Source: Candidatus Saccharimonadales bacterium
Lineage (GTDB): Bacteria > Patescibacteriota > Saccharimonadia > Saccharimonadales > JBBQAJ01
Reading direction: 5' to 3'
Assembly (NCBI GenBank): GCA_038206875.1
Contig: JBBRAK010000005.1
Location: forward strand, 385-64,384
Length of the DNA stretch: 64,000 nucleotides
Shown here: piece after piece, positions 11,792-49,918 of the stretch
Position numbering within the stretch: the first letter of the stretch is position 1
Layout of the letters: each line of letters begins with the position of its first letter
Notes under the pieces: generated by a model
What the model was told of the DNA's origin: nothing
Database searches by the model: none
What the model saw: only the letters and a program-made list of their open reading frames with translations
Position numbers and translations under genes: made by a program

Positions 11792-13363
11792 ATGAATGTC
11801 CAGGCATCAAGGGAAGCAGGATTTACGATTGCAGAGCTTGTTATAGGTCTGACTGTTATGGCTATAGTAATTTTGAGCGTTTTTGGGCTATTCATAAGCT
11901 TAGTCCACAGTACTGTTATTGCAAAAAAGAAGGCAGCGGCCACGACCCTAGCAACAAATCAAATGGAATATTTAAAATCATTGCCTTACGATAGTCTGGC
12001 GGTTGTTGGGGGTAGTATTTATATTCCAAGCCCCCTTCCGGCAACTTCATCAACTAAAGTAAATGGGATTAGTTATACCACAACAACTAGTATAAATTTT
12101 GTCGACGAAGCATTTGATGGTTGTGCGGACTATCCAAACCTGCAACTGAAAATGCAATACTGTAGAAACTATCCTGCGCCACCAGGAGCCCCCAATCCAG
12201 ATACCAATCCTCAGGACTATAAAATAATTCATGTCTCTGTTGCAGATGTTTCTGGACGTAAACTGGCAGAAGTCGACTCTACCGTTTCGGCAAGAGTTGC
12301 AGAAACCAATAGCACAACTGGAGCACTTTTTGTAAGTGTCATAGATAACAACGGCAACCCGGTTCAGGGAGCAACAGTTAATATTTCAAACCCGACACTT
12401 GTGCCAGTAGTGGCGCTGTCAGACTCAACTGATTCAAATGGGATTTCCATTTTTTATGGCCTCAACCCCGACACTACAGGAAATGATTATCTTATAACTG
12501 CCTCCAAACCTGGCTACTCAACACTATCGACCTTAAAGCCTGCTGGGTCCTTACAGCCTAACTATGCGAGTCAAAATATCTTCACTCAACTTTCTTCATA
12601 TGTCACACTCACAATCAAACTACAAGGAAACCCTAGCTTACTAATTGAGACCACCGATGTTAACGGTTCTCCTTTGGCAAACGTAAAAGCATACGTCAAG
12701 GGCGGATACAAAAAATATAGCGACAGCACGGACACGCAGTATTATTTCGACAATTTATCACCCAGTGACAACAGACCCGTAACTGACAGCAGTGGGCTGG
12801 CGACTATAAATAATTTGGTCCCTGGCGATTACATATTTTGTGGTGACGAAGGAGCTACAAGTTGTAGTGTTGGAGGCACAACATACTATTTGGTAGCGGC
12901 GGTTCCGTCTGTGGGCTCAAACTCCCTCAACCCCATAAATGTTCCAATTTTTGATTCATCATCTCCCCCTGCAACGACGTTTCCTTATGGTGGTCAAAAT
13001 TATTTGCAAAAAGTACGCCTGATGCTTTCAACATTTTCAAATTTTCCAAGAGTATTTAACATCTCTCCCTATGAAGTAAGTTTAAGTGGGGGGTCGATAA
13101 ACAATTTTTCATTTAGTTTAGCAGGTCAAAACCTACCATGTGACGCTAGTCCAGCAAGCTGTTCCACGACTGTGCGTGTTACTAAAGATACAAATGTATA
13201 TTCGGCCAGTTGCACTGGCGATTCAGCTGGAACGACAGTAAACTGCACGATAGATTTAACAGGAATATCTGTGGGTGTGGGAAGTATTTCTGTAATTGCA
13301 AACGGTCACACACTATCCCTTCCAACAAGTCCATTTTTGGGAGGCATAAATGTCACCCCGTAG
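11792..13363 (+). CDS. Large pilin-like protein (523 aa) with a class III (prepilin) signal
   Basis: The N-terminus is MNVQASREAG|FTIAELVIGLTVMAIVILSVF (G/F cleavage, Glu+5). The body has CarboxypepD_reg-like beta-sandwich stretches (NGNPVQGATVNISN...ITASKPGYST). Confidence 0.75.
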   Translation: MNVQASREAGFTIAELVIGLTVMAIVILSVFGLFISLVHSTVIAKKKAAATTLATNQMEYLKSLPYDSLAVVGGSIYIPSPLPATSSTKVNGISYTTTTSINFVDEAFDGCADYPNLQLKMQYCRNYPAPPGAPNPDTNPQDYKIIHVSVADVSGRKLAEVDSTVSARVAETNSTTGALFVSVIDNNGNPVQGATVNISNPTLVPVVALSDSTDSNGISIFYGLNPDTTGNDYLITASKPGYSTLSTLKPAGSLQPNYASQNIFTQLSSYVTLTIKLQGNPSLLIETTDVNGSPLANVKAYVKGGYKKYSDSTDTQYYFDNLSPSDNRPVTDSSGLATINNLVPGDYIFCGDEGATSCSVGGTTYYLVAAVPSVGSNSLNPINVPIFDSSSPPATTFPYGGQNYLQKVRLMLSTFSNFPRVFNISPYEVSLSGGSINNFSFSLAGQNLPCDASPASCSTTVRVTKDTNVYSASCTGDSAGTTVNCTIDLTGISVGVGSISVIANGHTLSLPTSPFLGGINVTP

Positions 13364-13955: not shown

Positions 13956-15544
13956 TTAACCTACGTCGAAGCTTCATTGACGAGAATGGTGCTATTTTGC
14001 CGATAGTTTTGGCTTTTATTCTTGCATCAACCATTTTGACTGGTGCTGTTCTGACCGTAATTCAGACCAATTTTTTTACAGTTAATTTAAATACCCAGAG
14101 GCAACAGGCACTAAATATCGCAGAGGCGGGAGTAAATTATTACCTGTGGCACATGTCGCATGATGCAAACGATTTCAAAGACGGTCAAAGTACGCCAGCT
14201 ACTCCAGACCCTGACTTGGGCTATGGTCCCTACGTGCACAATTACGTCGACGACAACAGTAAAACAACCGGTACATATACTCTATGGATAAAACCCCAGA
14301 GTGCTGGCTCTACAATTATGACAGTACGTTCCATTGGGAAAGTTAAAAATACAAATGTAATTCGTACAGTTGATGCCCAAATTGGAGCAACGTCTTTTGC
14401 GAGCTACGCGTTAGCTTCAGATTCGGCCCTTTGGTTTGGCAATACCGAAGTCGCAAATGGCCCTGTACATTCCAACGTAGGTGTTAGAATGGATGGAGCT
14501 AGTTTCGGAGACGTAACAAGCGCCAACGCAACTTACGTTCCGCCCGGATCACTTGGTGGTGACGGCGCGAGTCATCCAGGCGTTTGGTGCAAAAGTTCAG
14601 TCACAACACCCGTAAACTGTAATTCTAGATCTAAAGCGGACTGGCATTACCCAGTGCCTTTGCTGGACTTCAATCAAATTTCTTCAAGTTTGTGCACTAT
14701 CAAAAAAGTTGCATTCTCTAGTGATGCCACTACTTCAGCATTGTCACAGCTTAGCAACGCTTGCTCCCAAACACCCACCACTAGAACCCCGTCATACTTG
14801 CCACAGAGGAGTGCCAGTGGAAGTTTCAGTAGTACCCAAGGGTATCTTATAGAGCTCAACACCAATGGAACTTATAATCTTTATAACGTAAACTCGGAAA
14901 ACGATACTAAGGCTACATATGTAAGCGCTCTGGGCAAAAGCTTAGTATCTAGCAATGTTGTTATTCCAAGCACCGGTGTAATTTTTGCAGAAGACAACGT
15001 CTGGATACGAAGCAACCCGACATACAAAGGTCGCGTTACTATTGGTTCTGGCAGACTTGCACAAACCAACAGCACTGACATAGTTATCGCCGATGATCTA
15101 GTGTATACCACGAAAAATGGTGATGATGCTATTGGCTTAGTTACCGAAAATTCAGTAATAATTGCACCCTATGCACCACCAGCGTCAGGTGCGTTTACTT
15201 TCGAAGTTGATGCATCTATGATTGCACAATCTGGTAGCGTTACTTATCCACTACATTATAGATCCACGCCAAGCAAATACACACACGGATGGATAAACTC
15301 AAATCAAAAATTCATTTTTTATGGCTCTATATCCACCAGACAAACTTGGACTTGGACATGGCTAATTGGGTGTGGGTCTTGTGCGGACGCAGTTTATAGC
15401 GCCAGTAATAGTGCTTATATATCTGGAATTTTAAATAACAGCACTGATTATGACTATAATTTACTGTACGCACCTCCACCCAACTACCCAATTACGGGTG
15501 GGTATAATATTTTGTCTTGGCGCGAAGTCCTGACAACTCCATAG
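13952..15544 (+). CDS. Large pilus-associated protein (530 aa), PilX-like N-terminus
   Basis: It has an N-terminal hydrophobic helix (GAILPIVLAFILASTILTGAVLTVI) without the G/F-x-x-x-E signature. It joins the upstream gene by an ATGA overlap and sits inside the pilus operon. Confidence 0.5.
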   Translation: MINLRRSFIDENGAILPIVLAFILASTILTGAVLTVIQTNFFTVNLNTQRQQALNIAEAGVNYYLWHMSHDANDFKDGQSTPATPDPDLGYGPYVHNYVDDNSKTTGTYTLWIKPQSAGSTIMTVRSIGKVKNTNVIRTVDAQIGATSFASYALASDSALWFGNTEVANGPVHSNVGVRMDGASFGDVTSANATYVPPGSLGGDGASHPGVWCKSSVTTPVNCNSRSKADWHYPVPLLDFNQISSSLCTIKKVAFSSDATTSALSQLSNACSQTPTTRTPSYLPQRSASGSFSSTQGYLIELNTNGTYNLYNVNSENDTKATYVSALGKSLVSSNVVIPSTGVIFAEDNVWIRSNPTYKGRVTIGSGRLAQTNSTDIVIADDLVYTTKNGDDAIGLVTENSVIIAPYAPPASGAFTFEVDASMIAQSGSVTYPLHYRSTPSKYTHGWINSNQKFIFYGSISTRQTWTWTWLIGCGSCADAVYSASNSAYISGILNNSTDYDYNLLYAPPPNYPITGGYNILSWREVLTTP

Positions 15545-29068: not shown

Positions 29069-29098
29069 TTGACATTTATATACACCTTATGCTATAAT
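29069..29098 (+). promoter_or_regulatory. Sigma-70 promoter TTGACA-N18-TATAAT, 6 nt upstream of the GGDEF gene ATG
   Basis: Both hexamers are perfect consensus (29069-29074, 29093-29098). The ATG is at 29105 and there is no SD, which fits a leaderless layout. Confidence 0.6.
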
Positions 29099-29104
29099 AT
29101 ACTT

Positions 29105-29821
29105 ATGGCATCACCTAATAAATATTCCGTGAAAGAATTGCTCAAGCCAACTCCAGATACGCAATACTCCGACCCTAAAATGAATGCAATTGCCAAGGGT
29201 TACAGATTGGCGGGTCGCGCGACCTGGGAAGCATTCACGAAATCTCAAGAAGCAATGCATGATCCATTGACAGGACTGCTACGTAAAGAGTACTGGAAAG
29301 CTGATTTGGATGATCGAATGCAAGCCGGCGTTGCATTTGGAATAGCTTTTATGGACCTTGATTATTTCAAGTTGGTCAACGACAAGCTGGGACATGAAAG
29401 AGGTGACAAACTGTTGAATGCATTTGGTGATTTTCTTGAAGATAAATTTAAGCGTAAAAGCGACGTATTTGGTCATGAACGAATAATACAAAGTTCGGAT
29501 GCTCCAAATGAACCTGATGAACAACCCGTTAGTGGACGTTATGGTGGAGACGAATTTACCGCAACTTTTGATCTTCACGAAAACAGCCGTCGCAATAATC
29601 TTTCACCTCAAGAATCGATGGTAGATGAAATTGACTACATGCGTGGAGTGACGGCCGAATTTGTAGATATGCAACCGCAAGATATTAAGGATTTAGGGTT
29701 CAATATTTCCACTGGCTTTGCAGTCTGGGATCCGGAGCATCCAACCAGCAGAGAAACACTACTAGCCGAGGCGGATGAATCAATGTATGCCGCCAAAGCA
29801 CTCCAAAAACAACCTGCATAA
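29105..29821 (+). CDS. GGDEF-domain diguanylate cyclase
   Basis: It contains DPLTGLLRKEYW, FMDLDYFKLVNDKLGHERGDKLL, RYGGDEFTATF and ADESMYAAKA. The start is set at MASPNK because of the promoter geometry. Confidence 0.85.
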   Translation: MASPNKYSVKELLKPTPDTQYSDPKMNAIAKGYRLAGRATWEAFTKSQEAMHDPLTGLLRKEYWKADLDDRMQAGVAFGIAFMDLDYFKLVNDKLGHERGDKLLNAFGDFLEDKFKRKSDVFGHERIIQSSDAPNEPDEQPVSGRYGGDEFTATFDLHENSRRNNLSPQESMVDEIDYMRGVTAEFVDMQPQDIKDLGFNISTGFAVWDPEHPTSRETLLAEADESMYAAKALQKQPA

Positions 29822-29824
29822 ATT

Positions 29825-30928
29825 CTAATTAAATAGACCTCTTTTTTGGTTTTGTTTGAACTCTTCTAGAAGCTCTTGCTGGCGTTTACTCAGCTTTGTA
29901 GGCGTATCAACTAGCACTGTCACTATATGCGCCCCGCGGGTGTCGCTTTTTAGATGCGTTACACCGTGATTAGACAGTTTGAAATCTGTTCCAGATTGTG
30001 TACCGGCTGGGACTTTCATTTTTATCGGTCCATCTACCGTATCAACCGAAATTTCTGTTCCTAACGTAGCATCTACCATATCTATGTGCTCTTCGCTCAG
30101 AATTAAGTCGCCTTCACGGGTAAAGCGTTTGTGTGATTTGACCCGAACATGTACATATAAATCACCCTTTGGACCATTGGCTATAGCTTCTCCGTGTTCA
30201 CGCAAACGGATAGTTGCGCCGTCTTCGTCTATACCCGCAGGGACTTTCAGGCGTATTTCTTGTTTTTTGGACTTGGTACCTTTGCCATGACATACGGTAC
30301 ATTCTTTTTCGGGGATTTTGCCTGTTCCTTTACATTTTGGGCAAGTTTGCGCTTGTTGTATATTGCCAAATATTGTTCTTGTGGCTGTAACGACTTGGCC
30401 TGAACCTTTGCAAGTTTCACATGTAACTAGTTCGTGTCCGGGTTCAGCAGTTGTGCCTTTGCAGTGTTCGCAAGTATCTTCTAGGCTTAAATTCAAGTCT
30501 ACTTCCGTGCCAAAAACAGCCTGCTCAAAAGTAATTTCTATCGTTGTCTCAACGTCGCGTCCACGACTCCGTCTGCTTCTTTGACTGCCTTGCTGTCCAC
30601 CAAAAAAGCTTCCAAATATATCGCCTAGTCCAAGGTCTCCGAAATCAAAGTTTACTTCCTGACCCTGTCCACCAAATCCCTGATAAGGATTTCCACCACC
30701 TCCGGACGTACCTCCTACACCGGCATGACCAAACTGGTCGTATCGTTGACGTTTGGATGAATCTTTGAGTACTTCGTAGGCTTCGTTTATCTCTTTGAAC
30801 TTGGACTCATCACCGCCTTCTTTGTCTGGGTGATGCTGAACTGCGGCTTTACGAAAAGCCTTTTTAATCTCATCAGCACTAGCCGACTTGCCTACCCCCA
30901 AAACTTCATAATAATCTCTTTTAGACAT
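29825..30928 (-). CDS. dnaJ: Chaperone DnaJ
   Basis: It has a J domain (MSKRDYYEVLGV...HPDK), a G/F-rich region, four CxxCxGxG zinc motifs and a C-terminal substrate domain. Confidence 0.97.
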   Translation of the reverse strand: MSKRDYYEVLGVGKSASADEIKKAFRKAAVQHHPDKEGGDESKFKEINEAYEVLKDSSKRQRYDQFGHAGVGGTSGGGGNPYQGFGGQGQEVNFDFGDLGLGDIFGSFFGGQQGSQRSRRSRGRDVETTIEITFEQAVFGTEVDLNLSLEDTCEHCKGTTAEPGHELVTCETCKGSGQVVTATRTIFGNIQQAQTCPKCKGTGKIPEKECTVCHGKGTKSKKQEIRLKVPAGIDEDGATIRLREHGEAIANGPKGDLYVHVRVKSHKRFTREGDLILSEEHIDMVDATLGTEISVDTVDGPIKMKVPAGTQSGTDFKLSNHGVTHLKSDTRGAHIVTVLVDTPTKLSKRQQELLEEFKQNQKRGLFN

Positions 30929-30976
30929 GTGTTCTCTGCGATTTAATAATTTTTGTAGGTCTTATTATAGCTGAAA

Positions 30977-31003
30977 TTGGCACTATACACCATAGAGTGC
31001 TAG
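30977..31003. promoter_or_regulatory. CIRCE-like HrcA operator upstream of dnaJ
   Basis: On the dnaJ strand it reads CTAGCACTC-TATGGTGTA-TAGTGCCAA, against the consensus TTAGCACTC-N9-GAGTGCTAA. TATAAT (30964-30969) follows 7 nt downstream. The element overlaps the stop codon of the 971-aa gene. Confidence 0.6.
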
Positions 31004-33915
31004 TTTTTATCCGAATGTTTTTGCAACTGATATACTGCGAGTCCAATCAAAAAAGTGGCTAAAACAGTGAGTGCTGCCCATCCAAGATTTCGCAACTGAT
31101 ATAGTACCGCTCCTAGCGCTACATATAGCCCCCATTTTATAACTATTGGTTTGTGTATTGTCATGCCTAGCAACATAAAACCAATCTGTTCTAGCAGTAG
31201 CCACCATCCATATAATCCACCAGACGCTCCTGCCAGTGCTTGAAAAATGAGCGGTATAGTTGCACTTGCCAGCATGAGTATCAAATAATTGTCTGCGTTT
31301 GACGTTTCTCCCCTCTGTGTTCTCCAATATGCGTAGCCTGCAAATAAAGTCGCGGTAATATGACTATAGGCCTGGATTTCTCTAACGCCCGCGTAGTGCA
31401 AGAACCACATAAATCCTGCTACCACCACAGCACCGGCAAATTCGCGGTTGTCTTGTGTGGTTTCGCTCAAATAGTCATATAACAAATACCCGGCTATCAT
31501 TAACCCTAAAGGCATAGGCCATACCGTGAAGCCCACAAACAAAATCGAAAATGGTGCAATAAAGGCACACCATAATGAAGCAATTAATACGGATTTGTAT
31601 TTTTGATAGGTTTTTAAGTCCATAGCCAACAACCTGACCCCCAAATAACCAACGACCGAAAGCCCAGTGCTAAATAACAGAAAACTGTATAACCCGGTTT
31701 CAAGACTGGGTCGAATGGCACTCCATGCAGTAAATTGAGCCAAAATTGGAATAGTCACAAGTATATCAGCACGTTTTTCTACAAAACGACTAAGTAGCAT
31801 AACGATAGACAGCAATACCAGACTGATAAGAGTCGTATGTAGCTGTGAATTGTCAGAACTAAGAGACAAAACTATCGCCAATATAGCTGCAAAAATATAC
31901 CCAGCTACATACGACTGACTCGCAGACTTGACATAACTTGCCAGGGGTATGCGCGTAGATAAGAAAACCGAGCCCCGAGCGATGGCACGCGACAAAATCA
32001 GCCCTAACATGGCAACAACATATGCCCATGCATAACTTTCGATTTGCCAACTCGCAATTAAACCTATGTGGCCAAACCCTACTGGCAACAAAAGCCACAA
32101 TAATGTGCTTATCCACCTGTTTATATCCTGCCTGATCCACATAGTAAGCCCAATATTGTACGCGAGTGAAACAATTAATGATACCAGAAACAATCCCGGT
32201 TGCGACCATGCCACAACAAGTGGTGTGGCGATTAATATACCCCCTACGGTTGCCCAGGAGTTTTTATCATCAACAAACGCGAGCACTAAGGTAGTTATCG
32301 CTACAACTGCAGAAACCTGAAACGCTACACTTGGGTCTACGAATAGCGCGAAAACAAGCACAAAAATAGCACTTATTAGATACATGGTACGTGCGGTCAT
32401 TACCCAATCTGAAAGTTTGTCATCAAATCCGTGCGCTAGCATAACTGCAAAATGTATTAGGAGTGTAGCCAACAATAACAGCGTCTGCTGTCTAATATCT
32501 AGCTTATGGACCGCAACATATTGACCAAAAATTACTGGCAGAGACATCCAGGCAACAACAGCCATGCCATAAGCATCCGCTCGCTTCTGACGCAACCATA
32601 TTACTAGGGCAATCGCAGTAAGTGCAACTACTGTTCCAAAAAATAAACTGGGGTGACCTGCTGCAAAAACTATACTCGTACCCGAAGAAAGTAACAGTAC
32701 GTTTGCGTAGTTTTTGCCTATTTCTGTGGTAGATTTCAAATACCACAATCCAAAAATCTGTATAAAGTTCAGTGCAACTAGTATTTCGACGGTCGCGGTT
32801 GTACTACTCGTAACTGAGTATACCAAGCAAGTAATGCCCGCAAGTACTGCAATATGACTTACGAGGAAATTATTGTCTCGGTATGTGTCATTTGTGCGCC
32901 ACGCTTCAAGTGCGTAATACAAACTAGCTAGGATTAGCGAAACCCCCAATTGTCCAAAGCCCTGCTGTGATACTAAAACGGCCGAAACTAGAACGGAAAG
33001 AGGTAAAAATAATTGTCCACTATTACGCGAAGATTCTTGAAGTTCCGGCCAAAAACCTTTCCATTTACTGACTAACTGAAAACATATTCCAACTAGAGCC
33101 ATTGCCCAGCCAAAATAATAAACTGGGGCATTTGAGATGGATATTCCAGATTCAAACAACGACAAAAATGTGAAAATAAATATATAATTAATTAGTGGCT
33201 TGCGAAGCTTTATCAGTGCGTGTGCATATAACATCATTGATAAGATTGATGTCGCAAACCAAACTTCTCTAGCTTGATTCATGAACACATAGTTGTATGA
33301 TGCTAAACCTACCAACGGCATTGTTGCTATTCCAATTCCAGCAAATGCCAGTCCTGCCGGTCTGAGCTTTGGTTTGTTTTGGAACAACCAAATCCCCCCG
33401 GAATACATAACTAACGTAACCAGCCCGACCGCTAGAGTTCTTAATACTCCATTTGCTTGGCCAAATGCAACGAACAATCCTACAGAAGCTACAAACAAAA
33501 AAGCTCCAAAATACAGCAATAGGGTCGCGTTGTCTAGTGGAGCAGAGTCCGCTTTTTGTTTATTAGTCTTTAGCTCTGATACTGAGCCGACTGTCTGTGG
33601 ACTATTTCGGGATAAAATTGAAGTTTTGCGTGGTTCCGAGTCGTTTGTTTCATCAGTTAAATCTCCTGTTACGGACGTGTAATTTTCATATTTTCCTATT
33701 GGCAGTCCTCTGGCTTTTAGGTCAGAAAGCATAGTATCTATTAAATTTTTCTGATCTTTGTTTTTGGTTTTGGCCCTGTAGCCTGCTATGAATAATGCCC
33801 ATTCAATATTTCTCTGCTCTAATTCATTGGTTTGGACATTGCCTGGTGAATTCGATTTTCGTTTGGATAAATTCCACAGCAATACAACAAGACCGATAAT
33901 AATCAGTAGTTCCAT
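31000..33915 (-). CDS. Very large polytopic membrane protein (971 aa, more than 25 predicted TM); possibly DUF2339-like
   Basis: The SD AGAGGA lies 8 nt upstream. It has an N-terminal TM, a soluble region of about 120 aa, and then an almost continuous run of hydrophobic helices. The family assignment is tentative. Confidence 0.7.
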   Translation of the reverse strand: MELLIIIGLVVLLWNLSKRKSNSPGNVQTNELEQRNIEWALFIAGYRAKTKNKDQKNLIDTMLSDLKARGLPIGKYENYTSVTGDLTDETNDSEPRKTSILSRNSPQTVGSVSELKTNKQKADSAPLDNATLLLYFGAFLFVASVGLFVAFGQANGVLRTLAVGLVTLVMYSGGIWLFQNKPKLRPAGLAFAGIGIATMPLVGLASYNYVFMNQAREVWFATSILSMMLYAHALIKLRKPLINYIFIFTFLSLFESGISISNAPVYYFGWAMALVGICFQLVSKWKGFWPELQESSRNSGQLFLPLSVLVSAVLVSQQGFGQLGVSLILASLYYALEAWRTNDTYRDNNFLVSHIAVLAGITCLVYSVTSSTTATVEILVALNFIQIFGLWYLKSTTEIGKNYANVLLLSSGTSIVFAAGHPSLFFGTVVALTAIALVIWLRQKRADAYGMAVVAWMSLPVIFGQYVAVHKLDIRQQTLLLLATLLIHFAVMLAHGFDDKLSDWVMTARTMYLISAIFVLVFALFVDPSVAFQVSAVVAITTLVLAFVDDKNSWATVGGILIATPLVVAWSQPGLFLVSLIVSLAYNIGLTMWIRQDINRWISTLLWLLLPVGFGHIGLIASWQIESYAWAYVVAMLGLILSRAIARGSVFLSTRIPLASYVKSASQSYVAGYIFAAILAIVLSLSSDNSQLHTTLISLVLLSIVMLLSRFVEKRADILVTIPILAQFTAWSAIRPSLETGLYSFLLFSTGLSVVGYLGVRLLAMDLKTYQKYKSVLIASLWCAFIAPFSILFVGFTVWPMPLGLMIAGYLLYDYLSETTQDNREFAGAVVVAGFMWFLHYAGVREIQAYSHITATLFAGYAYWRTQRGETSNADNYLILMLASATIPLIFQALAGASGGLYGWWLLLEQIGFMLLGMTIHKPIVIKWGLYVALGAVLYQLRNLGWAALTVLATFLIGLAVYQLQKHSDKN

Positions 33916-33946
33916 GAAATGTTCCTCTTATAACAAGGAATATACT

Positions 33947-34066
33947 CTATTTTCTATTAATCAACAAAAGAAGCACTAGAATTTTAATTGGTAAGAAGAG
34001 TCGTATCGTCGATAGCTGACCGAATTTCCTTCCCCCCAATACTTCATAGTAGTCCCGCTTAGACAT
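33947..34066 (-). pseudogene. dnaJ 5' stub (remnant of a second or ancestral dnaJ start)
   Basis: ATG TCT AAG CGG GAC TAC TAT GAA GTA TTG GGG encodes MSKRDYYEVLG. These are identical to the first 11 residues of the real DnaJ (ATG TCT AAA AGA GAT TAT TAT GAA GTT TTG GGG) but carry 7 nt differences across 5 codons, all synonymous. Similarity decays after codon 11, and the open frame runs 39 codons to a TAG. Confidence 0.65.
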
Positions 34067-34074
34067 ATATTAAA

Positions 34075-34512
34075 TTACACTCCTAGTATGTTGAACTTTC
34101 TTAGCCACTGTAAGGCCCCTAATACTCTGGTATTTGCAAGTTCTCTTTGTAGCCGTGTGGAATCGTCCTGATTTGCTTCGCCTGTTCCTGATTGTTCTTC
34201 AATTATTTCGGCGGGCTGATCTCCAACCCAAAACTCTAACACTTTTCCAGCGGCACTTAACCTTGCCTTCCAACTGTCATTGACTATCTTTTCCGCTCCC
34301 ATCAATTCTCCGGTTTTTTGCACCAATAAACTCCTGTCCGCTTCGCTTTTGCCAAGCCAAACAAACCTATCAGGAGCACTTTCGTCTCCAGCATCGGCAT
34401 TACTCTCTGTCATATCAACATGCGCGCTGGTGCTATGAATTTCACTCAAGAGAACACTAATAGCAAATTCTTTGCCCGCTGTTTCGCTTGTTGGCTCTCT
34501 ACCTTGTGGCAT
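34075..34512 (-). CDS. Hypothetical acidic protein (145 aa) translationally coupled to dnaK
   Basis: Its ATG shares one nt with the dnaK stop (TAATG). No family was recognised. Confidence 0.5.
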   Translation of the reverse strand: MPQGREPTSETAGKEFAISVLLSEIHSTSAHVDMTESNADAGDESAPDRFVWLGKSEADRSLLVQKTGELMGAEKIVNDSWKARLSAAGKVLEFWVGDQPAEIIEEQSGTGEANQDDSTRLQRELANTRVLGALQWLRKFNILGV

Positions 34513-36449
34513 TATTTTTCCTTTTTGTCTTCTTTTTCCTCATCTACTACTTCGCCTTCAACTGGTTCTTCTTTGTCGTCTTTTTTCTTATCACCCTCTT
34601 CGCTTGATGTGTCTTCAGATTTTTCTGATTCTTTAGAGGCTTCTTCGTACATTTTGGCACCTATTGGCATGATTTTGTCATTTAGCTCTTTGGCAGCTTC
34701 TTCTAGTACTGTTTTGTCTGCTTTTTCATCGTCTTTGACTTTTTTCGCAGTCTCTATGGCATCTTCCAGTGTTTTTGCATCTTCTTCGCTAATCTTGTCT
34801 TTGTTGTCTGATTTCATTTTTTCTGCCTGATAGACTGAACTGTCCAATGTGTTGCGGGCGTCAATTGCTTCACGCTTGGATTTGTCTTCGTCAGCGTGTG
34901 CTTCGGCTTCTTTAGCCATTTTTTCTACTTCAGTTTTGTCTAAGTTACCGCTTCCGCTAATTGTGATTGATTGTTCTTTGCCGGAACCTTTGTCTTTGGC
35001 GCTGACATTTAAAATTCCATTTGCGTCGATGTTAAAGGTCACTTCGATTTGTGGCACGCCCCTGGGAGCGCTTGGAATACCGTCTAGCACAAATCGACCA
35101 AGTGATTTGTTATCAGCCACCATTTCGCGTTCACCTTGAACTACATGTATTTCTACTTGTGGTTGGTTGTCAGCTGCCGTACTAAACGTTTCACTTTTAC
35201 TGGTAGGAATTGTCGTGTTACGCTCGATTAGTTTTGTCGCTACGCTTCCCAAAGTTTCGATTCCAAGCGACAACGGGGTAACATCCAGAAGTAATACATC
35301 TTTTACATCACCTTGAAGCACACCGCCCTGAATTGCAGCACCTACTGCAACAACTTCGTCTGGATTTACGCCTTTCATAGGATCTTTTCCAAATATTTTC
35401 TTTACTTTTTCGATAACTGCTGGCATTCGTGTCATACCGCCAACAAGTACAACCGCGTTTATTTCACTGGCTTTCAGTCCTGCGTCTTTTAGAGCTTTTT
35501 CACATGGGGTAGCAGTCTTGTCTACCAAATCGCCTACTAGCTGTTCCAGCTTGGCGCGGGTAAGTTTGTGTTCGAAGTGTTTTGGACCATCTGCATCTGC
35601 AGTCAGGAACGGCAGGTTGATGTTAACTTCGTTGGTCGTGCTTAGTTCAATTTTGGCTTTTTCTGCTTCATCTCGCAATCTTTGCATAGCCGCCTTATCA
35701 TCCGTTACGTTAACGCCGTGCTCTTTCTTGAATTCGTCAGCAAGATAATTAACTACTACGCGATCAAAATCAGCTCCTCCTAAGTGAGTGTCGCCGTTGG
35801 TGCTCTTTACTTCAAAAACGCCATCACCGAGCTCTAGAATTGAAACATCAAAAGTTCCACCGCCTAAGTCATAAACTGCGATTTTTTCGTCTTTTTTCTT
35901 CCCCTTATCTAAGCCATAGGCAAGAGCCGCGGCCGTAGGTTCGTTGATAATCCGTTTTACCTCAAGTCCGGCAATCTTACCAGCGTCTTTGGTGGCCTGA
36001 CGCTGAGAATCATCAAAATACGCCGGTACGGTTATGACGGCTTCTGTTACTTTGTCACCCAAAAAACTTTCGGCGTCTGTCTTTAGTTTACCTAAAATCA
36101 TGGCACTTATTTCCTCAGGACTGTATTCTTTGTCACCCATTTTGACTTTGACACCTTTGCCACTTTTGACCATTTCGTAACCCATAAGTTTAATGTCGCG
36201 CTGAACTTCTTTGTCTTCCCAGTTCCGACCAATCAGCCTTTTGACTTCATACACGGTATTTTTGCTGTTGGTGACCTGCTGTCTTCTGGCAACTTGTCCA
36301 ACCAGACGTTCACCGTTTTTGTTCACGGCAACTACACTTGGAGTAGTTCGTGAGCCCTCGCTATTTGCAATGATTTCTGATTTACCAGACTGCATTACAG
36401 CCATTGCGCTGTTTGTTGTTCCTAAGTCTATCCCTATTATTTTTCCCAT
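34512..36449 (-). CDS. dnaK: Chaperone DnaK (Hsp70)
   Basis: [14 protein letters not shown] is preceded by the SD AAGGAGG. Hsp70 signatures occur throughout, and the C-terminal tail is acidic/Lys-rich. The ORF-track start at 36554 adds 35 non-homologous residues that overlap grpE. Confidence 0.98.
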
Positions 36450-36451
36450 TA

Positions 36452-36934
36452 TTATTCCTCCTTTATTACTTTCTTGTTCTCCATTTTCACTTTTACCATG
36501 GCATGTCGGATTACTTGTTCGCCTAGTACGTATCCAGGCTGTAGTTCCTCGCAAACCACTTCAACATCGCCCTTGCCTTCTTCCATATGAATTGCTTCGT
36601 GAAGATGGGGATTAAACACCTCACCCACAGTCTTTATTCTTGCAACACCTATGTCCAGTAAAGTTTTTTCAAATTGTTTGACTACACCTTGCACGCCTCT
36701 GACGTAGTCGTTGCCAACCAATTCTTTAGGTACATGCTTGAGAGAACGCTCCAGGTTATCGATTGCTGGCAAAAGCTCACTTATCACATTGGCTTTGACC
36801 ATATTCCGAAGTTCGCCAATCTGCTGTTCGTGCCTACGGCGCATGTTCTCAGCATCTGCCCTCTCTTGCTTTAATGCATTCGTAAGCTCTTCCATTTCTG
36901 TTCGTGGGTGCTGAGGTTTGGTGCTCTTAGACAT
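36452..36934 (-). CDS. grpE: Nucleotide exchange factor GrpE
   Basis: It has a GrpE coiled coil plus a beta domain (FNPHLHEAI...[16 protein letters not shown]) and lies between hrcA and dnaK. Confidence 0.93.
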
Positions 36935-37178
36935 GTTTTTTTACCCCATCTGCAAAAAAATTGTTTATTTCAAATGCCGTCATCAGCGCAAGAGTCGCTA
37001 GAGGACTTGCAGAATCCCAAGATGCTACGATTCCTTCCGCACCTACCCGGGTCCTAGCGGTTGTTATAGCAATGTCGTCACCAGCTCTAACAGAGGAGTC
37101 GCATACTCTGACTAGTCCTTCGAAATCAGGATAAGTCTCACCTATTGTTTCAAATACTTGTCTTGATACTTTACTCAT
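36927..37178 (-). CDS. Hypothetical 83-aa protein wedged between hrcA and grpE
   Basis: It overlaps both neighbours by 8 nt. No family was recognised. Confidence 0.4.
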   Translation of the reverse strand: MSKVSRQVFETIGETYPDFEGLVRVCDSSVRAGDDIAITTARTRVGAEGIVASWDSASPLATLALMTAFEINNFFADGVKKHV

Positions 37179-37875
37179 ACATGGCTCCTTCCAGCGCTTC
37201 GCCAGCGCGTTTTACCAGACTCATTACATCTTTGTAGTTTTGACGTGTTGGGCCTAGTACTCCAATGTAGCTTTCGTCACTGTATGAACTGCGAAATTTA
37301 CTAATAATTAGCGAGCATTGGGCACTACTGCCTATGGGGTTTTCGGCGCCAATATATACGCTAAGTGGTTTGTTGGGCGATGCTTCTCGTAACCACGGCT
37401 CTAGATTGTCTAATAAACTTGCGACCTGTTGAACTTGAGCACCACCAATAAACTCTGGTTGCCCAAACAGATTTGCAAGTCCACCCATGTATAACTGATC
37501 ACCGATTGTAGCCAGTCCTAGATTGTGCGTAAGCTCCACAAGAGTGTCTACGGCATTTCTTATGGTTCGCTCCGGCAATCCACCACCACCAACTCTGGCA
37601 GTTAAAGCGCGTTCACCTCGACTTTCGGTTGGCGTTTCAGTTTGCTCGCTAACGTTGTTTACGTAGTATCTGTAGCCTTTGTCTGTCGGCACGCGACCGG
37701 CGCTGGTGTGAGGTTGGTGAATAAACCCAAGTTTTTCTAGCTCAGCCATTTCAGCACGAATAGTCGCAGAACTTACGTTAAAAACTTTCGCAAGCAACGA
37801 AGAACCTACCGGACTGGCAACTTCAGCATACTGTTCAACTATAGCTGATAAAAGTAATGTTTGGCGTTCTGTCAT
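37171..37875 (-). CDS. hrcA: Heat-inducible repressor HrcA (short form, 234 aa)
   Basis: It has an N-terminal wHTH (LTERQTLLLSAIVEQY...GSSLLAK...SSATIRAEMAELEKLGFIHQPHTSAGRVPTDKGYRYYV) and the C-terminal GVLGPTRQNYKDV motif. Confidence 0.9.
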   Translation of the reverse strand: MTERQTLLLSAIVEQYAEVASPVGSSLLAKVFNVSSATIRAEMAELEKLGFIHQPHTSAGRVPTDKGYRYYVNNVSEQTETPTESRGERALTARVGGGGLPERTIRNAVDTLVELTHNLGLATIGDQLYMGGLANLFGQPEFIGGAQVQQVASLLDNLEPWLREASPNKPLSVYIGAENPIGSSAQCSLIISKFRSSYSDESYIGVLGPTRQNYKDVMSLVKRAGEALEGAMYE

Positions 37876-37899: not shown

Positions 37900-37929
37900 A
37901 TTATACTAAAGCTGGCACTCCTGTGTCAA
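37900..37929 (-). promoter_or_regulatory. hrcA operon promoter TTGACA-N18-TATAAT
   Basis: On the minus strand TTGACA (37924-37929) lies inside the spacer of the distal CIRCE, and TATAAT is at 37900-37905. Confidence 0.6.
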
Positions 37930-37938
37930 GAGTGCCAG
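37912..37938. promoter_or_regulatory. Distal CIRCE operator (perfect palindrome)
   Basis: CTGGCACTC-CTGTGTCAA-GAGTGCCAG keeps the GCACTC-N9-GAGTGC core identical to the CIRCE consensus. Confidence 0.75.
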
Positions 37939-47119: not shown

Positions 47120-48994
47120 TTAGTAGAGGCTAGCTTCTTTGGGCATTTTAGAACCCTTTAAAATTTCAAGAACTTGGTCAGCTTCTACTGTCTCTTTTTC
47201 TAGCAATTCTTTTTTGAGGTCCTTAAGTTTATCAAGGTTTGCTTTAATTACTATTCTAGCCCTATTTGCCGCTTCGGTTATAAGGGCTTCTACTTCGTCG
47301 TCAATCAATTTGGCAGTTTCGTCGGAATATTGTCGTTCATGCATGACACGCTCCAACATAATTCCTTCCTCAACATGGAACACCTGATCTCTTAGCTTTT
47401 TACCCATACCTTGGTTTACTACCATTTCCCTAGCTAACTCGGCAGCTTTTTGTAGATCATTTCCAGCTCCAGTCGTTACTCGGTCATTACCATATATAAC
47501 TTCTTCTGCTATTCTACCTCCCAACATACGAGAAAGGATGTCTTTGTACTCAATAATACTGTGGTAGCTACGGTCCTCGGGTGGTATAAACCAAGTCACT
47601 CCACCAGTACCACCACGTGGAATAATAGTAACTTTATGTACCATATCGCTATCCGGTAAGACATGGCCAACTATGGCATGGCCAGCTTCGTGATATGCAG
47701 TCATTTCTTTTTCTTTGTCGTTCATGATTTTGTTTTTGCGTTCTGGTCCAATAGCAACTTTTTCGAACGCCGAAGTTACATCGTTTTGATTTATAGTTTT
47801 TCGGTTGTGACGGGCGGCAACAATTGCAGCTTCGTTGGCTATGTTGGCCAAGTCTGCGCCACTGCTACCAGCACTTTTGGCAGCTAGTGCGTCAAGGTCC
47901 ACCTCACTATCAACAGGTTTTTTGGCAAAATGAACTTTAAGTATGGCCTCTCTGTCTTTTCTATCGGGTAAATCAATGTTCACCCGACGGTCAAATCGCC
48001 CTGGTCGTAGCAGTGCGGGATCAAGTACGTCAGAACGGTTAGTGGCGGCTAACACGATAACATTTGTGCCTTGCTCGAAGCCGTCCATTTCAACCAAAAT
48101 CTGATTCAAGGTTTGTTCACGCTCATCATGACCACCGCCCATCCCTGAGCCTCGACGCCGTCCAACGGCGTCAATTTCATCTACAAAAATTATACATGGG
48201 GCGTTTTTCTTGGCCTTGGCAAACAAGTCACGGACTCTTGATGCACCAACCCCAACAAACATTTCAACAAACTCGGAACCAGAAATGCTAAAAAACGGCA
48301 CTCCTGCTTCGCCGGCAACTGCGCGTGCTAGCATGGTTTTACCTGTTCCTGGAGGACCGATTAACATAACACCTTTAGGGATTTTGGCGCCAACAGATTC
48401 AAACTTTTTGGGAAATTTGAGAAATTCTACTATTTCTGCTAAATCTTGTTTGGCTTCAAGTGATCCAGCTATTTCTTTGAACATAATTTTGTCTTTTTCA
48501 TTCCCATACAATCGAGCACGACTTTTTCCAAAACTCATCGCTTGATTTCCCTGACCTTGAGCACTTTTAATCAGCCAAAAAATTCCTCCAAACATAAGCA
48601 GAGGGATAAATAACGAACCGCCAACCTGTAGCCATGTTGATGTAGAGTTGGACTCTTTTTGATTTATAACTTGAACGTCTTTGCTCGTAAGTCCTTGCTC
48701 GTATATGCTTGACCCTGATTCTTTTCTAGAAACTTCCAGTGGTTCTTTGTCATCTTTGTTTTTAAATACAGCAATCTCGTCACCTTTAATCTCTATTTTT
48801 TGAATTTCTCCTGAGTTTGCTTTGTTGATAACTTCGTTAAACGGTACAGGGGTTTTGGCTGGTGTTTGTGAAATACTAGCCCAAACAATAAGTCCAAATA
48901 GCGCAATTAGCGCAAAAAATCCAAGATTTTTTACACCCTGACGACCGGGTTTTTTACCACCACTAGATTTCCTGAAAGGTTTCTTGGGATCCAT
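47120..48994 (-). CDS. ftsH: ATP-dependent zinc metalloprotease FtsH
   Basis: It has two TM helices, AAA+ motifs ([27 protein letters not shown]), the SRH region and the zinc motif HEAGHA. Confidence 0.98.
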
Positions 48995-49030: not shown

Positions 49031-49918
49031 CTAGCGCTCTCTACGTATGAGTGCTAAATTGTCTTTTCCAATTTTGAAAAACATGGAGTCATCAATGTCT
49101 ATTATTCGACCTGGCTTGCCTGTTTTCATTGCTACAATCATTCTTTCTATAGTTTTTTTGGTAATGTTTTTTGCGTCGTGCTTACGCAAAAAAGAGTGAA
49201 TTAGCTCTTTAGCAACTGAGTGTGGTAATCCGACAAACCATTGTCTGTCAATTTCATTTGTTGCTGGCTGTACGTGCAATAATGTATTTAGGTGTCTGTC
49301 AATTTCGTCATTGTTACTTCGTAAATTTTCTAGCAGAATAACAAATTCGGCGCGTTTGCCTGGTAAAAGACGTGGTATCACATTTGCTCTAATATAGTTA
49401 CGCAAATAGATGGTGTTTTTGTTGGTTGCATCTTCTCGCCAGGCAACAGCATGTTTCCCTGCATATTCAATTATTTGATCCTTGCCGTAACCAATCAAAG
49501 GTCGAATAATCCCGTCAGTTGTCTTCAAAGACGTCAGCCCCAACCGACCAGTGCCTCGAACCATATTGATAATCGCCGTTTCCAATACATCATCTTCGTG
49601 ATGAGCTGTAATAATTGCACTAGCACCGCTGGCTTTTTTTACACTTTCTAGGAATTCATATCTAGCTTCTCGTGATTTTGCTTCACTTGCGCTACGACCC
49701 AGTTTTCCTTGCATATGCACAAAAGGTAATTTGTGTTTTTTGGCTATTTGTTGAACTAATTTTCTGTCATCTTGGGAGTCTTTACGAATTCCATGATCGA
49801 AGTGGGCTACTGTCAGCTTAAGGCCTGGTCTTTTTTGCAACAAATCCAAAAGAACCATTGAATCCACTCCGCCACTCACCGCAACAATATATTTACCAGC
49901 ACCCACCGTAATCCTCAT
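49031..49918 (-). CDS. tilS: tRNA(Ile)-lysidine synthase TilS (short form)
   Basis: It has the PP-loop AVSGGVDSMVLLDLL and sits upstream of ftsH, the usual tilS-ftsH neighbourhood. No hpt gene lies between them here. Confidence 0.88.
   Translation of the reverse strand: MRITVGAGKYIVAVSGGVDSMVLLDLLQKRPGLKLTVAHFDHGIRKDSQDDRKLVQQIAKKHKLPFVHMQGKLGRSASEAKSREARYEFLESVKKASGASAIITAHHEDDVLETAIINMVRGTGRLGLTSLKTTDGIIRPLIGYGKDQIIEYAGKHAVAWREDATNKNTIYLRNYIRANVIPRLLPGKRAEFVILLENLRSNNDEIDRHLNTLLHVQPATNEIDRQWFVGLPHSVAKELIHSFLRKHDAKNITKKTIERMIVAMKTGKPGRIIDIDDSMFFKIGKDNLALIRRER

Follow-up and report, generated by a model that had tools for sequence, protein, structure and literature searches.

Between dnaK and dnaJ in the 64,000-nucleotide stretch of Saccharimonadales DNA analysed here (the window), the minus strand carries a 39-codon open reading frame closed by TAG (33947..34066), whose first part is a dnaJ 5′ fragment and whose last part comes from the region upstream of the following gene. 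Our preferred reading, to which we give a probability of roughly 0.55, is that this stub is a functionless piece of the start of a second dnaJ allele, originally about 17 codons of which 11 can still be read, that it runs into the leader of its neighbor, and that it was left behind as a recombination scar. Judged by its sequence, the fragment is a dnaJ 5′ remnant; neither chance similarity nor recent duplication nor faulty assembly explains it, and it carries no indication of a function of its own.

Results

A dnaJ start in the heat-shock operon

Saccharimonadales are ultrasmall epibiotic bacteria with reduced genomes, and the best 80 matches to the DnaK encoded in the window all come from Saccharibacteria (order Saccharimonadales). 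The locus is read from the minus strand throughout. It starts at a CIRCE element (37900..37938, CTGGCACTC-N9-GAGTGCCAG) that overlaps a perfect TTGACA-18-TATAAT promoter ahead of hrcA (37171-37875), followed by grpE (36452-36934) and dnaK (34512..36449), the Hsp70 gene, which forms the conserved left anchor of a variable interval. This interval contains only orf145 (34075..34512), a 145-aa reading frame of a rare family whose ATG overlaps the dnaK stop codon as TAATG; the stub; and a gene for a 971-aa polytopic membrane protein (31000..33915) from a family of more than 150 members. The conserved leader of the 971-aa gene (33916..33985) includes AGAGG as a ribosome-binding site 8 nt ahead of the ATG and encodes stub codons 28–39. 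Beyond the interval lies the resident full-length dnaJ (29825..30928), which specifies a J domain, a zinc finger and a C-terminal domain. As the original prediction had proposed, this gene has a CIRCE of its own, a CIRCE-like inverted repeat located at 30977..31003 (CTAGCACTC-N9-TAGTGCCAA) that overlaps the stop codon of the 971-aa gene. The element has three mismatches to TTAGCACTC-N9-GAGTGCTAA, with 0.01 chance matches expected; hrcA is encoded in the operon, and control by HrcA is predicted.

Searches of Pfam and NCBIfam gave no match for orf145, the 971-aa protein, the 158-aa reading frame (orf158) found between dnaK and the stub in a congener, or the two cargo genes of the L050 locus described below. 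An Rfam scan of 30800-34600 yielded nothing beyond a chance match below threshold within the 971-aa gene, base composition revealed no block of foreign appearance, and database queries by exact sequence for DnaK, DnaJ and the stub peptide returned zero records. The stretch from dnaK to the stub has no predicted terminator and no CIRCE lies ahead of the stub, which probably rides on the heat-shock transcript begun at the hrcA promoter.

The stub frame reads MSKRDYYEVLGGRKFGQLSTIRLFLPIKILVLLLLINRK, from an ATG at 34066-34064, 8 nt past the stop codon of orf145 (34075-34512), to the TAG at 33949-33947. Its first 11 codons (34034..34066) encode MSKRDYYEVLG, identical at 11 of 11 residues to the N terminus of the resident DnaJ, which starts 3138 nt downstream at 30928; past this point the frame continues as GRKFGQLSTIRLFLPIKILVLLLLINRK. 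The two copies differ in codons 3, 4, 5, 6 and 9 by a total of six nucleotides, all synonymous, two of which fall in one codon (AGA versus CGG). The original prediction had described this frame 8 nt past the dnaK-coupled reading frame, its equality with the resident N terminus, the exclusively synonymous changes in those five codons and the terminal TAG at 33947-33949, all exactly as found here.

We searched both strands of the 64-kb window with an nhmmer profile in which 61 relatives were represented by their dnaJ 5′ regions, the window's own dnaJ excluded. The profile recovered the real dnaJ at E = 3.9e-57 and the stub at 34080-34021 at E = 4.6e-6, and the next match had E = 1.2, which disposes of the concern, voiced with the original prediction, that the similarity might be indistinguishable from chance. 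The claim that the frame is a true dnaJ remnant is supported both by this score and by the 11 identical residues. Stub and resident dnaJ form a direct repeat of 46 nt at 76% identity, 3138 nt apart, and the alignment stops near codon 15–17. Over approximately codons 12–17 (34016..34033) the continuation of the fragment is garbled, broken by small indels, and the corresponding stretch is in frame (VGKSA) in the orthologous stub of the congener L082. The indel-ridden similarity that had been proposed past codon 11 is thereby upheld indirectly, by an L082 copy that is in frame over codons 1–16.

These features are those of a gene fragment, with significant homology (nhmmer E = 4.6e-6) over part of the length of dnaJ and the remainder absent. 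A functional J domain comprises ~63–70 residues and includes the HPD motif between helices II and III; the stub has residues 1–11 only, without HPD and without a J domain of Pfam length. Its location is that of the parent gene in other genomes. Relatives in which dnaJ directly follows dnaK do exist, as the original prediction had envisaged: the dnaJ start lies 25–150 nt after dnaK in nine loci, and it lies 1 nt after the stop codon of P0123, a homolog of orf145 discussed below.

We attach practically no weight to chance similarity, or to a chimera assembled from two strains, as an explanation of the stub. The profile E value (4.6e-6) speaks against chance. A chimera could be suspected because the source is probably a metagenome-assembled genome, and an independent Logan assembly contig (L081, from SRR19962010) stops at 30899, within the repeated dnaJ start. 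That same contig, however, is 100% identical to the window over 30899-34807 and spans both stub junctions, and an equal structure is present in a different genome, GCA_039738715.1 (L082).

The scar is shared with a congener

L082 represents a congener of the window's genome, with amino acid identities of 95% for HrcA, 95% for DnaK, 97% for DnaJ and 80% for the 971-aa protein (best tblastn segments, 94–97% for the three chaperone-operon proteins and 81% for the 971-aa protein) and 56% identity at four-fold degenerate sites. Its gene order is dnaK, orf158, a stub, the 971-aa gene and dnaJ. The L082 stub, MPKRDYYEVLLVGKSAQVNSSK, is 22 codons long and retains dnaJ codons 1–16 in frame (MPKRDYYEVLLVGKSA) in a gapless alignment, and its distance from the 971-aa gene is 148 nt, compared with 151 nt in the window. 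Lys3-Arg4 is written AAG CGN in both stubs and AAA AGA in both resident dnaJ genes. By this comparison, the scar is common to the window and L082. Because the L082 stub is in frame over codons 1–16, the ancestral dnaJ fragment would have reached at least codon 16–17, and the window copy has evidently become garbled past codon 11 since the shared ancestral scar. The crossover that the original prediction placed at dnaJ codons ~11–12 accordingly moves to a junction nearer codon 16–17.

Past the stubs, the window and L082 become homologous again at 33985, codon 28 of the frame in the window, so that the hydrophobic tail of the stub is the translated upstream region of the 971-aa gene. The leader at 33916..33985 can be aligned with L082 throughout, and its last 34 nt can also be aligned with L083; in L082, this upstream region falls outside the stub frame. 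The suggestion that the stub might be a micro-protein with a hydrophobic tail thus finds no support, as the tail is the leader of the 971-aa gene and is missing from the 22-codon frame of L082.

The next closest lineage, L083, is a sister from the same sample and has dnaK, a 218-nt gap and the 971-aa gene; SRR19962010 contains two members of this genus. We found no reading frame in this gap and, by the dnaJ 5′ profile search, no detectable stub. MAFFT had placed part of the spacer under dnaJ codons 5–21 with an implied ATG 151 nt from the 971-aa gene, as though L083 held a third, more decayed stub; we rejected this candidate on the empty profile search and an ordinary local alignment score (p=0.68). 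A candidate CIRCE remnant upstream of the L082 stub (TATGAGGTATAGTGCC versus TATGGTGTATAGTGCC) was marginal (p=0.02–0.12) and is not used as evidence. Elsewhere in the operon, grpE is only 56% identical at the amino acid level between the window and L082 although its flanks are ~95% identical, and by this measure it is xenologous between the two genomes. As to the number of events, two stubs formed independently would need junctions that coincide within ~30 nt, and two stubs formed by one event would need either ‘refresh by recombination’ or selection for the amino-acid-level conservation of codons 1–10.

The stub derives from a different allele

If six substitutions are placed at random on the resident sequence, an all-synonymous outcome has P=4e-5. 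In L082, where the stub and dnaJ can be compared over 16 codons, 8 of 11 nucleotide differences are synonymous and three are non-synonymous (P=6e-5). The divergence between stub and resident dnaJ is as large as that between dnaJ genes of different species. Synonymous sites that are saturated next to replacement sites that are nearly untouched suggest alleles that diverged while both were functional, in different lineages. The original prediction had argued that the stub is not a recent duplication of the resident dnaJ, which the all-synonymous pattern (P=4e-5) bears out, and had called it the remnant of an alternative dnaJ allele, which agrees with differences that arose under protein-level constraint. 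Among the sampled dnaJ 5′ ends we looked for the donor, and none stood significantly nearer than the others to either stub.

Duplication of the resident dnaJ start in place, whether tandem or segmental, with an upstream copy decaying neutrally, would account for the direct-repeat geometry (46 nt at 76% identity, 3138 nt apart), and the 96%-identical repeat at L050 could be read this way if taken by itself. Such a copy should, however, carry many replacement changes, whereas in both the window and L082 the differences are concentrated at synonymous sites, with 0 of 27 non-synonymous sites changed in the window and three non-synonymous nucleotides over 16 codons in L082. Even in L050, five of seven differences are synonymous and clustered in codons 6–13. 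We therefore regard in-place duplication as highly improbable.

The direction of transfer

Homologs of the 971-aa protein number more than 150, are ~950–1000 aa long and lie between dnaK and dnaJ in all nine lineages sampled there, across the contexts L012, L039, L067, L082, L083, L084/85, L086 and L087/88. Their pairwise identity tracks DnaK identity (Spearman 0.83), as expected of an old resident. The original prediction had this gene, a CIRCE and a full dnaJ arriving together as a block, and it suggested asking whether the gene occurs elsewhere and how the phylogeny of dnaJ compares with that of dnaK and grpE. Every located homolog is between dnaK and dnaJ, in every sampled relative that has it, and the resident DnaJ is congruent with HrcA and DnaK, with L052 the nearest outgroup for all three. 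From these comparisons we infer that the direction was probably the reverse, with orf145 and the dnaJ 5′ end as newcomers placed before a 971-aa gene, a CIRCE and a dnaJ that were already resident as a block.

The source of the newcomer may be glimpsed through orf145. Among 1.8 billion representative proteins it has one homolog, P0123 (40% identity, E=6e-16), whose 4572-nt JGI contig (sample 3300050046) carries a partial upstream gene, P0123 with the same 1-nt overlap, a full dnaJ 1 nt after its stop codon and a GGDEF gene. The upstream gene is cut by the contig end and is probably dnaK. Given this contig and the homology of orf145, the series of dnaK end, orf145 and dnaJ start looks like a piece of a dnaK-orfX-dnaJ operon. 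Scans of a metagenome collection for close relatives with orf145 and with the 971-aa protein found nothing.

On the dnaK side, L082 is the nearest relative of the window in every 200-nt window along the gene, and we found no recombination breakpoint inside dnaK over its whole length at this scale. Identity between the window and L082 falls only in the last ~225 nt, to 0.69–0.75, and the C-terminal tail of dnaK is expected to be variable in any case. The non-homologous stretch between the two genomes begins at the stop codon of dnaK, which is a plausible homologous anchor for the mechanism proposed below, with no crossover point seen inside the gene.

In the opposite direction, an ancestral order of dnaK, orf145 and dnaJ would have received the block of 971-aa gene, CIRCE and dnaJ through one crossover in or beyond dnaJ and an illegitimate join in the recipient dnaJ near codon 12–17, and the stub would be the recipient's old dnaJ start. 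The geometry of the scar fits either direction equally well, as does the finding that stub and resident dnaJ are different alleles, which this account can also claim. The P0123 contig indicates that a dnaK-side gene, an orf145-like gene and dnaJ occur naturally in this arrangement, and the interval is without a 971-aa gene in many relatives, the nearest outgroup (L052) among them; a gain of the gene in the clade of the window, L082 and L083 costs no more events than a loss in L052. On the other hand, the 971-aa gene lies in the interval wherever it has been located and its divergence tracks that of DnaK, and L083 has it directly after dnaK with neither an orfX nor a stub. An incoming block also sits poorly with a resident DnaJ that is nearest to L052, which lacks the 971-aa gene, rather than to carriers of the gene (80% for L086, 78% for L087), and it leaves unexplained why congeners that share the scar differ in orf145 and orf158. 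We consider arrival of the block doubtful, though a serious competitor to arrival of the orf145–dnaJ piece.

An apparently constrained start beside a probably replaced gene

One feature of the shared scar is peculiar. Despite flanks at 81–85% nucleotide identity between the window and L082, orf145 and orf158 show no homology that we could establish (BLASTP E=2; hhalign E=0.069 over 17 columns; shuffles, p~0.09; no blastn alignment), and on these results we rejected their relatedness and treat them as unrelated. Stub codons 1–10 of the same two genomes agree at 19 of 20 first and second positions and at six of ten third positions (P=1.7e-4 against the neutral 56%, in a sample of two sequences of 30 nt), and four of their five differences are synonymous (P=0.007). 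The first ten codons therefore look protein-constrained. Since orf145 and orf158 show no detectable relationship and yet nearly all differences in these codons are synonymous, what lies between dnaK and the stub was probably exchanged again in one lineage, through a crossover in the dnaJ-like start of the stub that would have refreshed it from a functional allele. We favor this re-exchange over selection because it also explains the replaced reading frame and because the remainder of the stub frame is unconserved in length, sequence and distance.

Selection would be the natural explanation if the stub were a translated small reading frame whose first ten residues matter, either as a leader or uORF for expression of the 971-aa gene or as a chaperone-interacting peptide. 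The positional bias (19/20 versus 6/10, with four-fold sites at 56%; P=1.7e-4) and the excess of synonymous differences (4/5; P=0.007) would follow, both copies have an ATG with a Shine-Dalgarno-like motif (AGGAG in the window, AGGTG in L082), and no terminator is predicted from dnaK to the stub. Yet nothing is common past residue 10, the frames are 39 and 22 codons long, and their stops lie 31 and 79 nt ahead of the next ATG in the window and L082, respectively. Ten residues of J-domain helix I lacking the HPD loop cannot form a J domain, and L083 has no detectable stub. Recombinational copying from functional dnaJ alleles would give an equal synonymous pattern with no selection at all, replacement of the adjacent reading frame argues independently for copying, and the signal comes from two sequences of 30 nt. 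We find a selected small reading frame quite unlikely. The contrary outcome foreseen in the original prediction, a functional small gene conserved among relatives, is likewise not what relatives display: the two frames differ in length (39 versus 22 codons), sequence and distance, only residues 1–10 are shared and look constrained, and L083 has none.

A broader proposition is that the dnaJ-like start is not inert, being either a selected ten-residue leader or a standing homology ‘landing pad’ that, together with dnaK, lets diverged Saccharimonadales exchange the small gene in between through transformation. We rate it as unlikely. Were the landing-pad version true, the dnaK-dnaJ interval would be a dedicated cassette-exchange site under heat-shock control.

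Turnover in the dnaK-dnaJ interval

Across 59 related loci with both genes, the gap between dnaK and dnaJ ranges from 25 nt to 8.4 kb, and these gaps hold at least a dozen unrelated families of same-strand reading frames. The range of sizes and the variety of unrelated frames mark the interval as a hotspot of gene turnover, in support of the original view that the stub records a recombination event there. Of the 58 loci whose gap measures at least 160 nt, 21 have a CIRCE specific to dnaJ, and none of eight loci with a shorter gap has one, which suggests that an autonomous heat-shock promoter for dnaJ is a widespread companion of long inserts; this, too, counts against the proposed arrival of the CIRCE within a block.

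The dnaJ 5′ profile, applied to 88 loci, detected extra dnaJ starts in three only: the window, L082 and L050. In L050, which belongs to a third, unrelated lineage, a 167-nt direct repeat at 96% identity brackets a 2.1-kb, two-gene insert. The repeated sequence starts with the left CIRCE arm of dnaJ, takes in the 5′ UTR and reaches codon 41, and five of the seven differences between its copies are synonymous. L050 is an independent, young scar of like kind, which shows the process to be a recurrent one and illustrates the look of a fresh scar.

Discussion

Our favored sequence of events begins from a resident arrangement of dnaK, 971-aa gene, CIRCE and dnaJ. DNA taken up from a relative with a dnaK, orfX and dnaJ arrangement would have been incorporated by homology-facilitated illegitimate recombination (HFIR): one end would have crossed over by homology within or close to the dnaK 3′ end, and the other would have been joined, illegitimately or through micro-homology, immediately ahead of the 971-aa gene. 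The incoming strand would have ended ~50 nt into the donor dnaJ, and that end would now be the stub. The lack of a CIRCE before the stub is expected for a donor in which orfX and dnaJ were co-transcribed. Later, the slot between dnaK and the stub was probably exchanged once more, with the dnaJ-like start of the stub acting as the right-hand patch of homology.

The stub alone is a pseudogene fragment of no consequence for the cell, and its value is that of a dated marker. Together with its surroundings, it portrays the Saccharimonadales heat-shock operon as a mosaic in which hrcA, dnaK and dnaJ serve as anchors and grpE, small orphan reading frames and large membrane proteins are replaced between them by DNA from diverged relatives, a picture that fits natural transformation as an active force in the evolution of these genomes. 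The dnaK-dnaJ interval appears to be a repeatedly used slot that would place its cargo under HrcA/CIRCE control. Our analysis also flags a conserved ~970-aa membrane protein family, to which no function is assigned, as embedded in the chaperone operon of many lineages.

With the Bacillus subtilis-type hrcA-grpE-dnaK-dnaJ operon under CIRCE/HrcA control, the window shares the gene order hrcA-grpE-dnaK...dnaJ and a CIRCE that overlaps the operon promoter (37900-37938), and several relatives keep dnaK and dnaJ 25–150 nt apart. Unlike that operon, the window has dnaJ 3.6 kb from dnaK with a second CIRCE of its own and a gene for a 971-aa membrane protein embedded between the two.

An HFIR product has a homologous anchor on one side, a novel joint with micro-homology of a few bases on the other, and a transformable host. 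The stub locus would resemble this, with dnaK as a plausible conserved anchor, a non-homologous end and foreign DNA trapped beside a conserved gene, and the stub itself would be a truncated piece of a donor gene at which the incoming strand ended. Cultivated Saccharibacteria have been shown to undergo natural transformation by homologous recombination (PMC10633639), so the group is transformable. HFIR following natural transformation is documented in work cited in PMC5361080 (de Vries & Wackernagel 2002; Prudhomme et al. 2002; Meier & Wackernagel 2003); relative to the scars studied there, as that source reports them, the mechanism at the stub is read from comparative anatomy alone.

HFIR scars with displaced gene remnants have been proposed for the type VI secretion (T6SS) arrays of Vibrio cholerae (PMC5361080). 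In T6SS effector-immunity arrays and Rhs/CDI loci, as in the dnaK-dnaJ interval, successive arrivals at an anchored slot leave remnants, and close relatives differ in their cassette (PMC5361080). What remains in those systems are immunity genes and the 3′ tips of toxin genes, for which there is a selective rationale (PMC5361080), whereas the stub comes from the start of a housekeeping co-chaperone gene, and the dnaK-dnaJ interval carries small orphan reading frames and membrane proteins to which no function is assigned.

More generally, the stub is an ordinary kind of feature, a real and well-supported scar like those that HFIR leaves at a hotspot between core genes. Hotspots of integration with core genes on either side were reportedly described by Oliveira, Touchon and Rocha in 2017 in Nat Commun. 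The dnaK-dnaJ interval likewise concentrates gain, loss and replacement across the clade, with no mobile-element genes: we found no integrase or transposase in the interval, and the repeat formed by stub and dnaJ, 46 nt at 76% identity, is not the near-identical pair of ends that an integrative element would have. What sets this hotspot apart from hotspots in general is its place inside a heat-shock operon, where dnaJ has its own CIRCE promoter in 21 of 58 loci with long gaps.

Gene content between dnaK and dnaJ

The gene of approximately 970 codons that occupies positions 31000-33915 of the window encodes a membrane protein with many predicted transmembrane helices, for which searches of Pfam and NCBIfam returned no match, and more than 150 homologues of this protein were found. 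Among Saccharimonadales, its gene habitually lies between dnaK and dnaJ, as in the window and in the related loci L012, L039, L067 and L082-L088; in L056 and L066 it is found directly 3' of dnaJ.

An independent assembly, the Logan contig L081 from SRR19962010, is identical to window positions 30899-34807. Its end, at 30899, falls ten codons past the start of the resident dnaJ and within the short stretch that is repeated in the stub, the 39-codon ORF after dnaK that begins with a dnaJ 5' fragment. The same data set also contains the sister lineage L083, a related strain in which the 971-aa gene directly follows dnaK, and it is possible that the SRR19962010 sample is heterogeneous in strain composition at the dnaK-dnaJ locus.

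Apparent replacement of grpE and loss of the gene convergent with dnaJ

GrpE of the window (36452-36934) and that of L082 (4561-5076), the congener with the same stub, share only 56% protein identity, versus approximately 95% for HrcA and DnaK, whose genes flank grpE. The GrpE proteins of L002, L011 and L023 are nearer to that of the window (70-73%) than is that of L082. The pattern suggests that one of the two lineages has acquired a xenologue in place of its original grpE. Orphan ORFs beside grpE are likewise lineage-specific, with one of 83 aa in the window and two of 86 and 90 aa in L082.

At the dnaJ edge, a GGDEF-domain gene (29069-29821, plus strand) is convergent with dnaJ, an arrangement also present in L086/L087 and in the contig of P0123, the sole homologue of orf145. 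In L082 this gene is down to a 58-residue remnant (12097-12270; 74% identity), a further recent loss at the margin of the dnaK-dnaJ locus.

CIRCE elements and heat-shock control

Across the dnaJ upstream regions of L001-L088, a dnaJ-specific CIRCE was present in 21 of 58 loci with a dnaK-dnaJ gap of at least 160 nt and in none of the eight with a shorter gap, and most loci with inserts of more than 2 kb between the two genes have one. Where a long insert interrupts the operon, dnaJ seems to have its own putative HrcA-controlled promoter.

The young dnaJ stub of L050, a separate case, is one copy of a direct repeat (12304-12470 and 14459-14625) and retains the entire CIRCE, a promoter-like region and the 5' UTR, so that the inserted cassette, comprising genes for a 175-aa protein and a 358-aa membrane protein, lies behind a copied dnaJ heat-shock control region. 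Both cargo genes have homologues 3' of dnaK in L045, where dnaJ is absent within 6 kb. A second J-domain-encoding stretch in L002 (20084-20261; MHGVDYYRVLGVSASASNAQIK...HPD), approximately 8 kb 3' of dnaJ, is probably a separate J-domain protein rather than a stub, because its HPD motif is intact.

Beyond the elements upstream of hrcA and dnaJ, the window holds a third CIRCE-like element with two mismatches (49031-49057, minus strand), between tilS (49031-49918, minus strand) and ftsH (47120-48994, minus strand). Its position directly 5' of ftsH suggests that ftsH is a putative member of the HrcA regulon in this genome.
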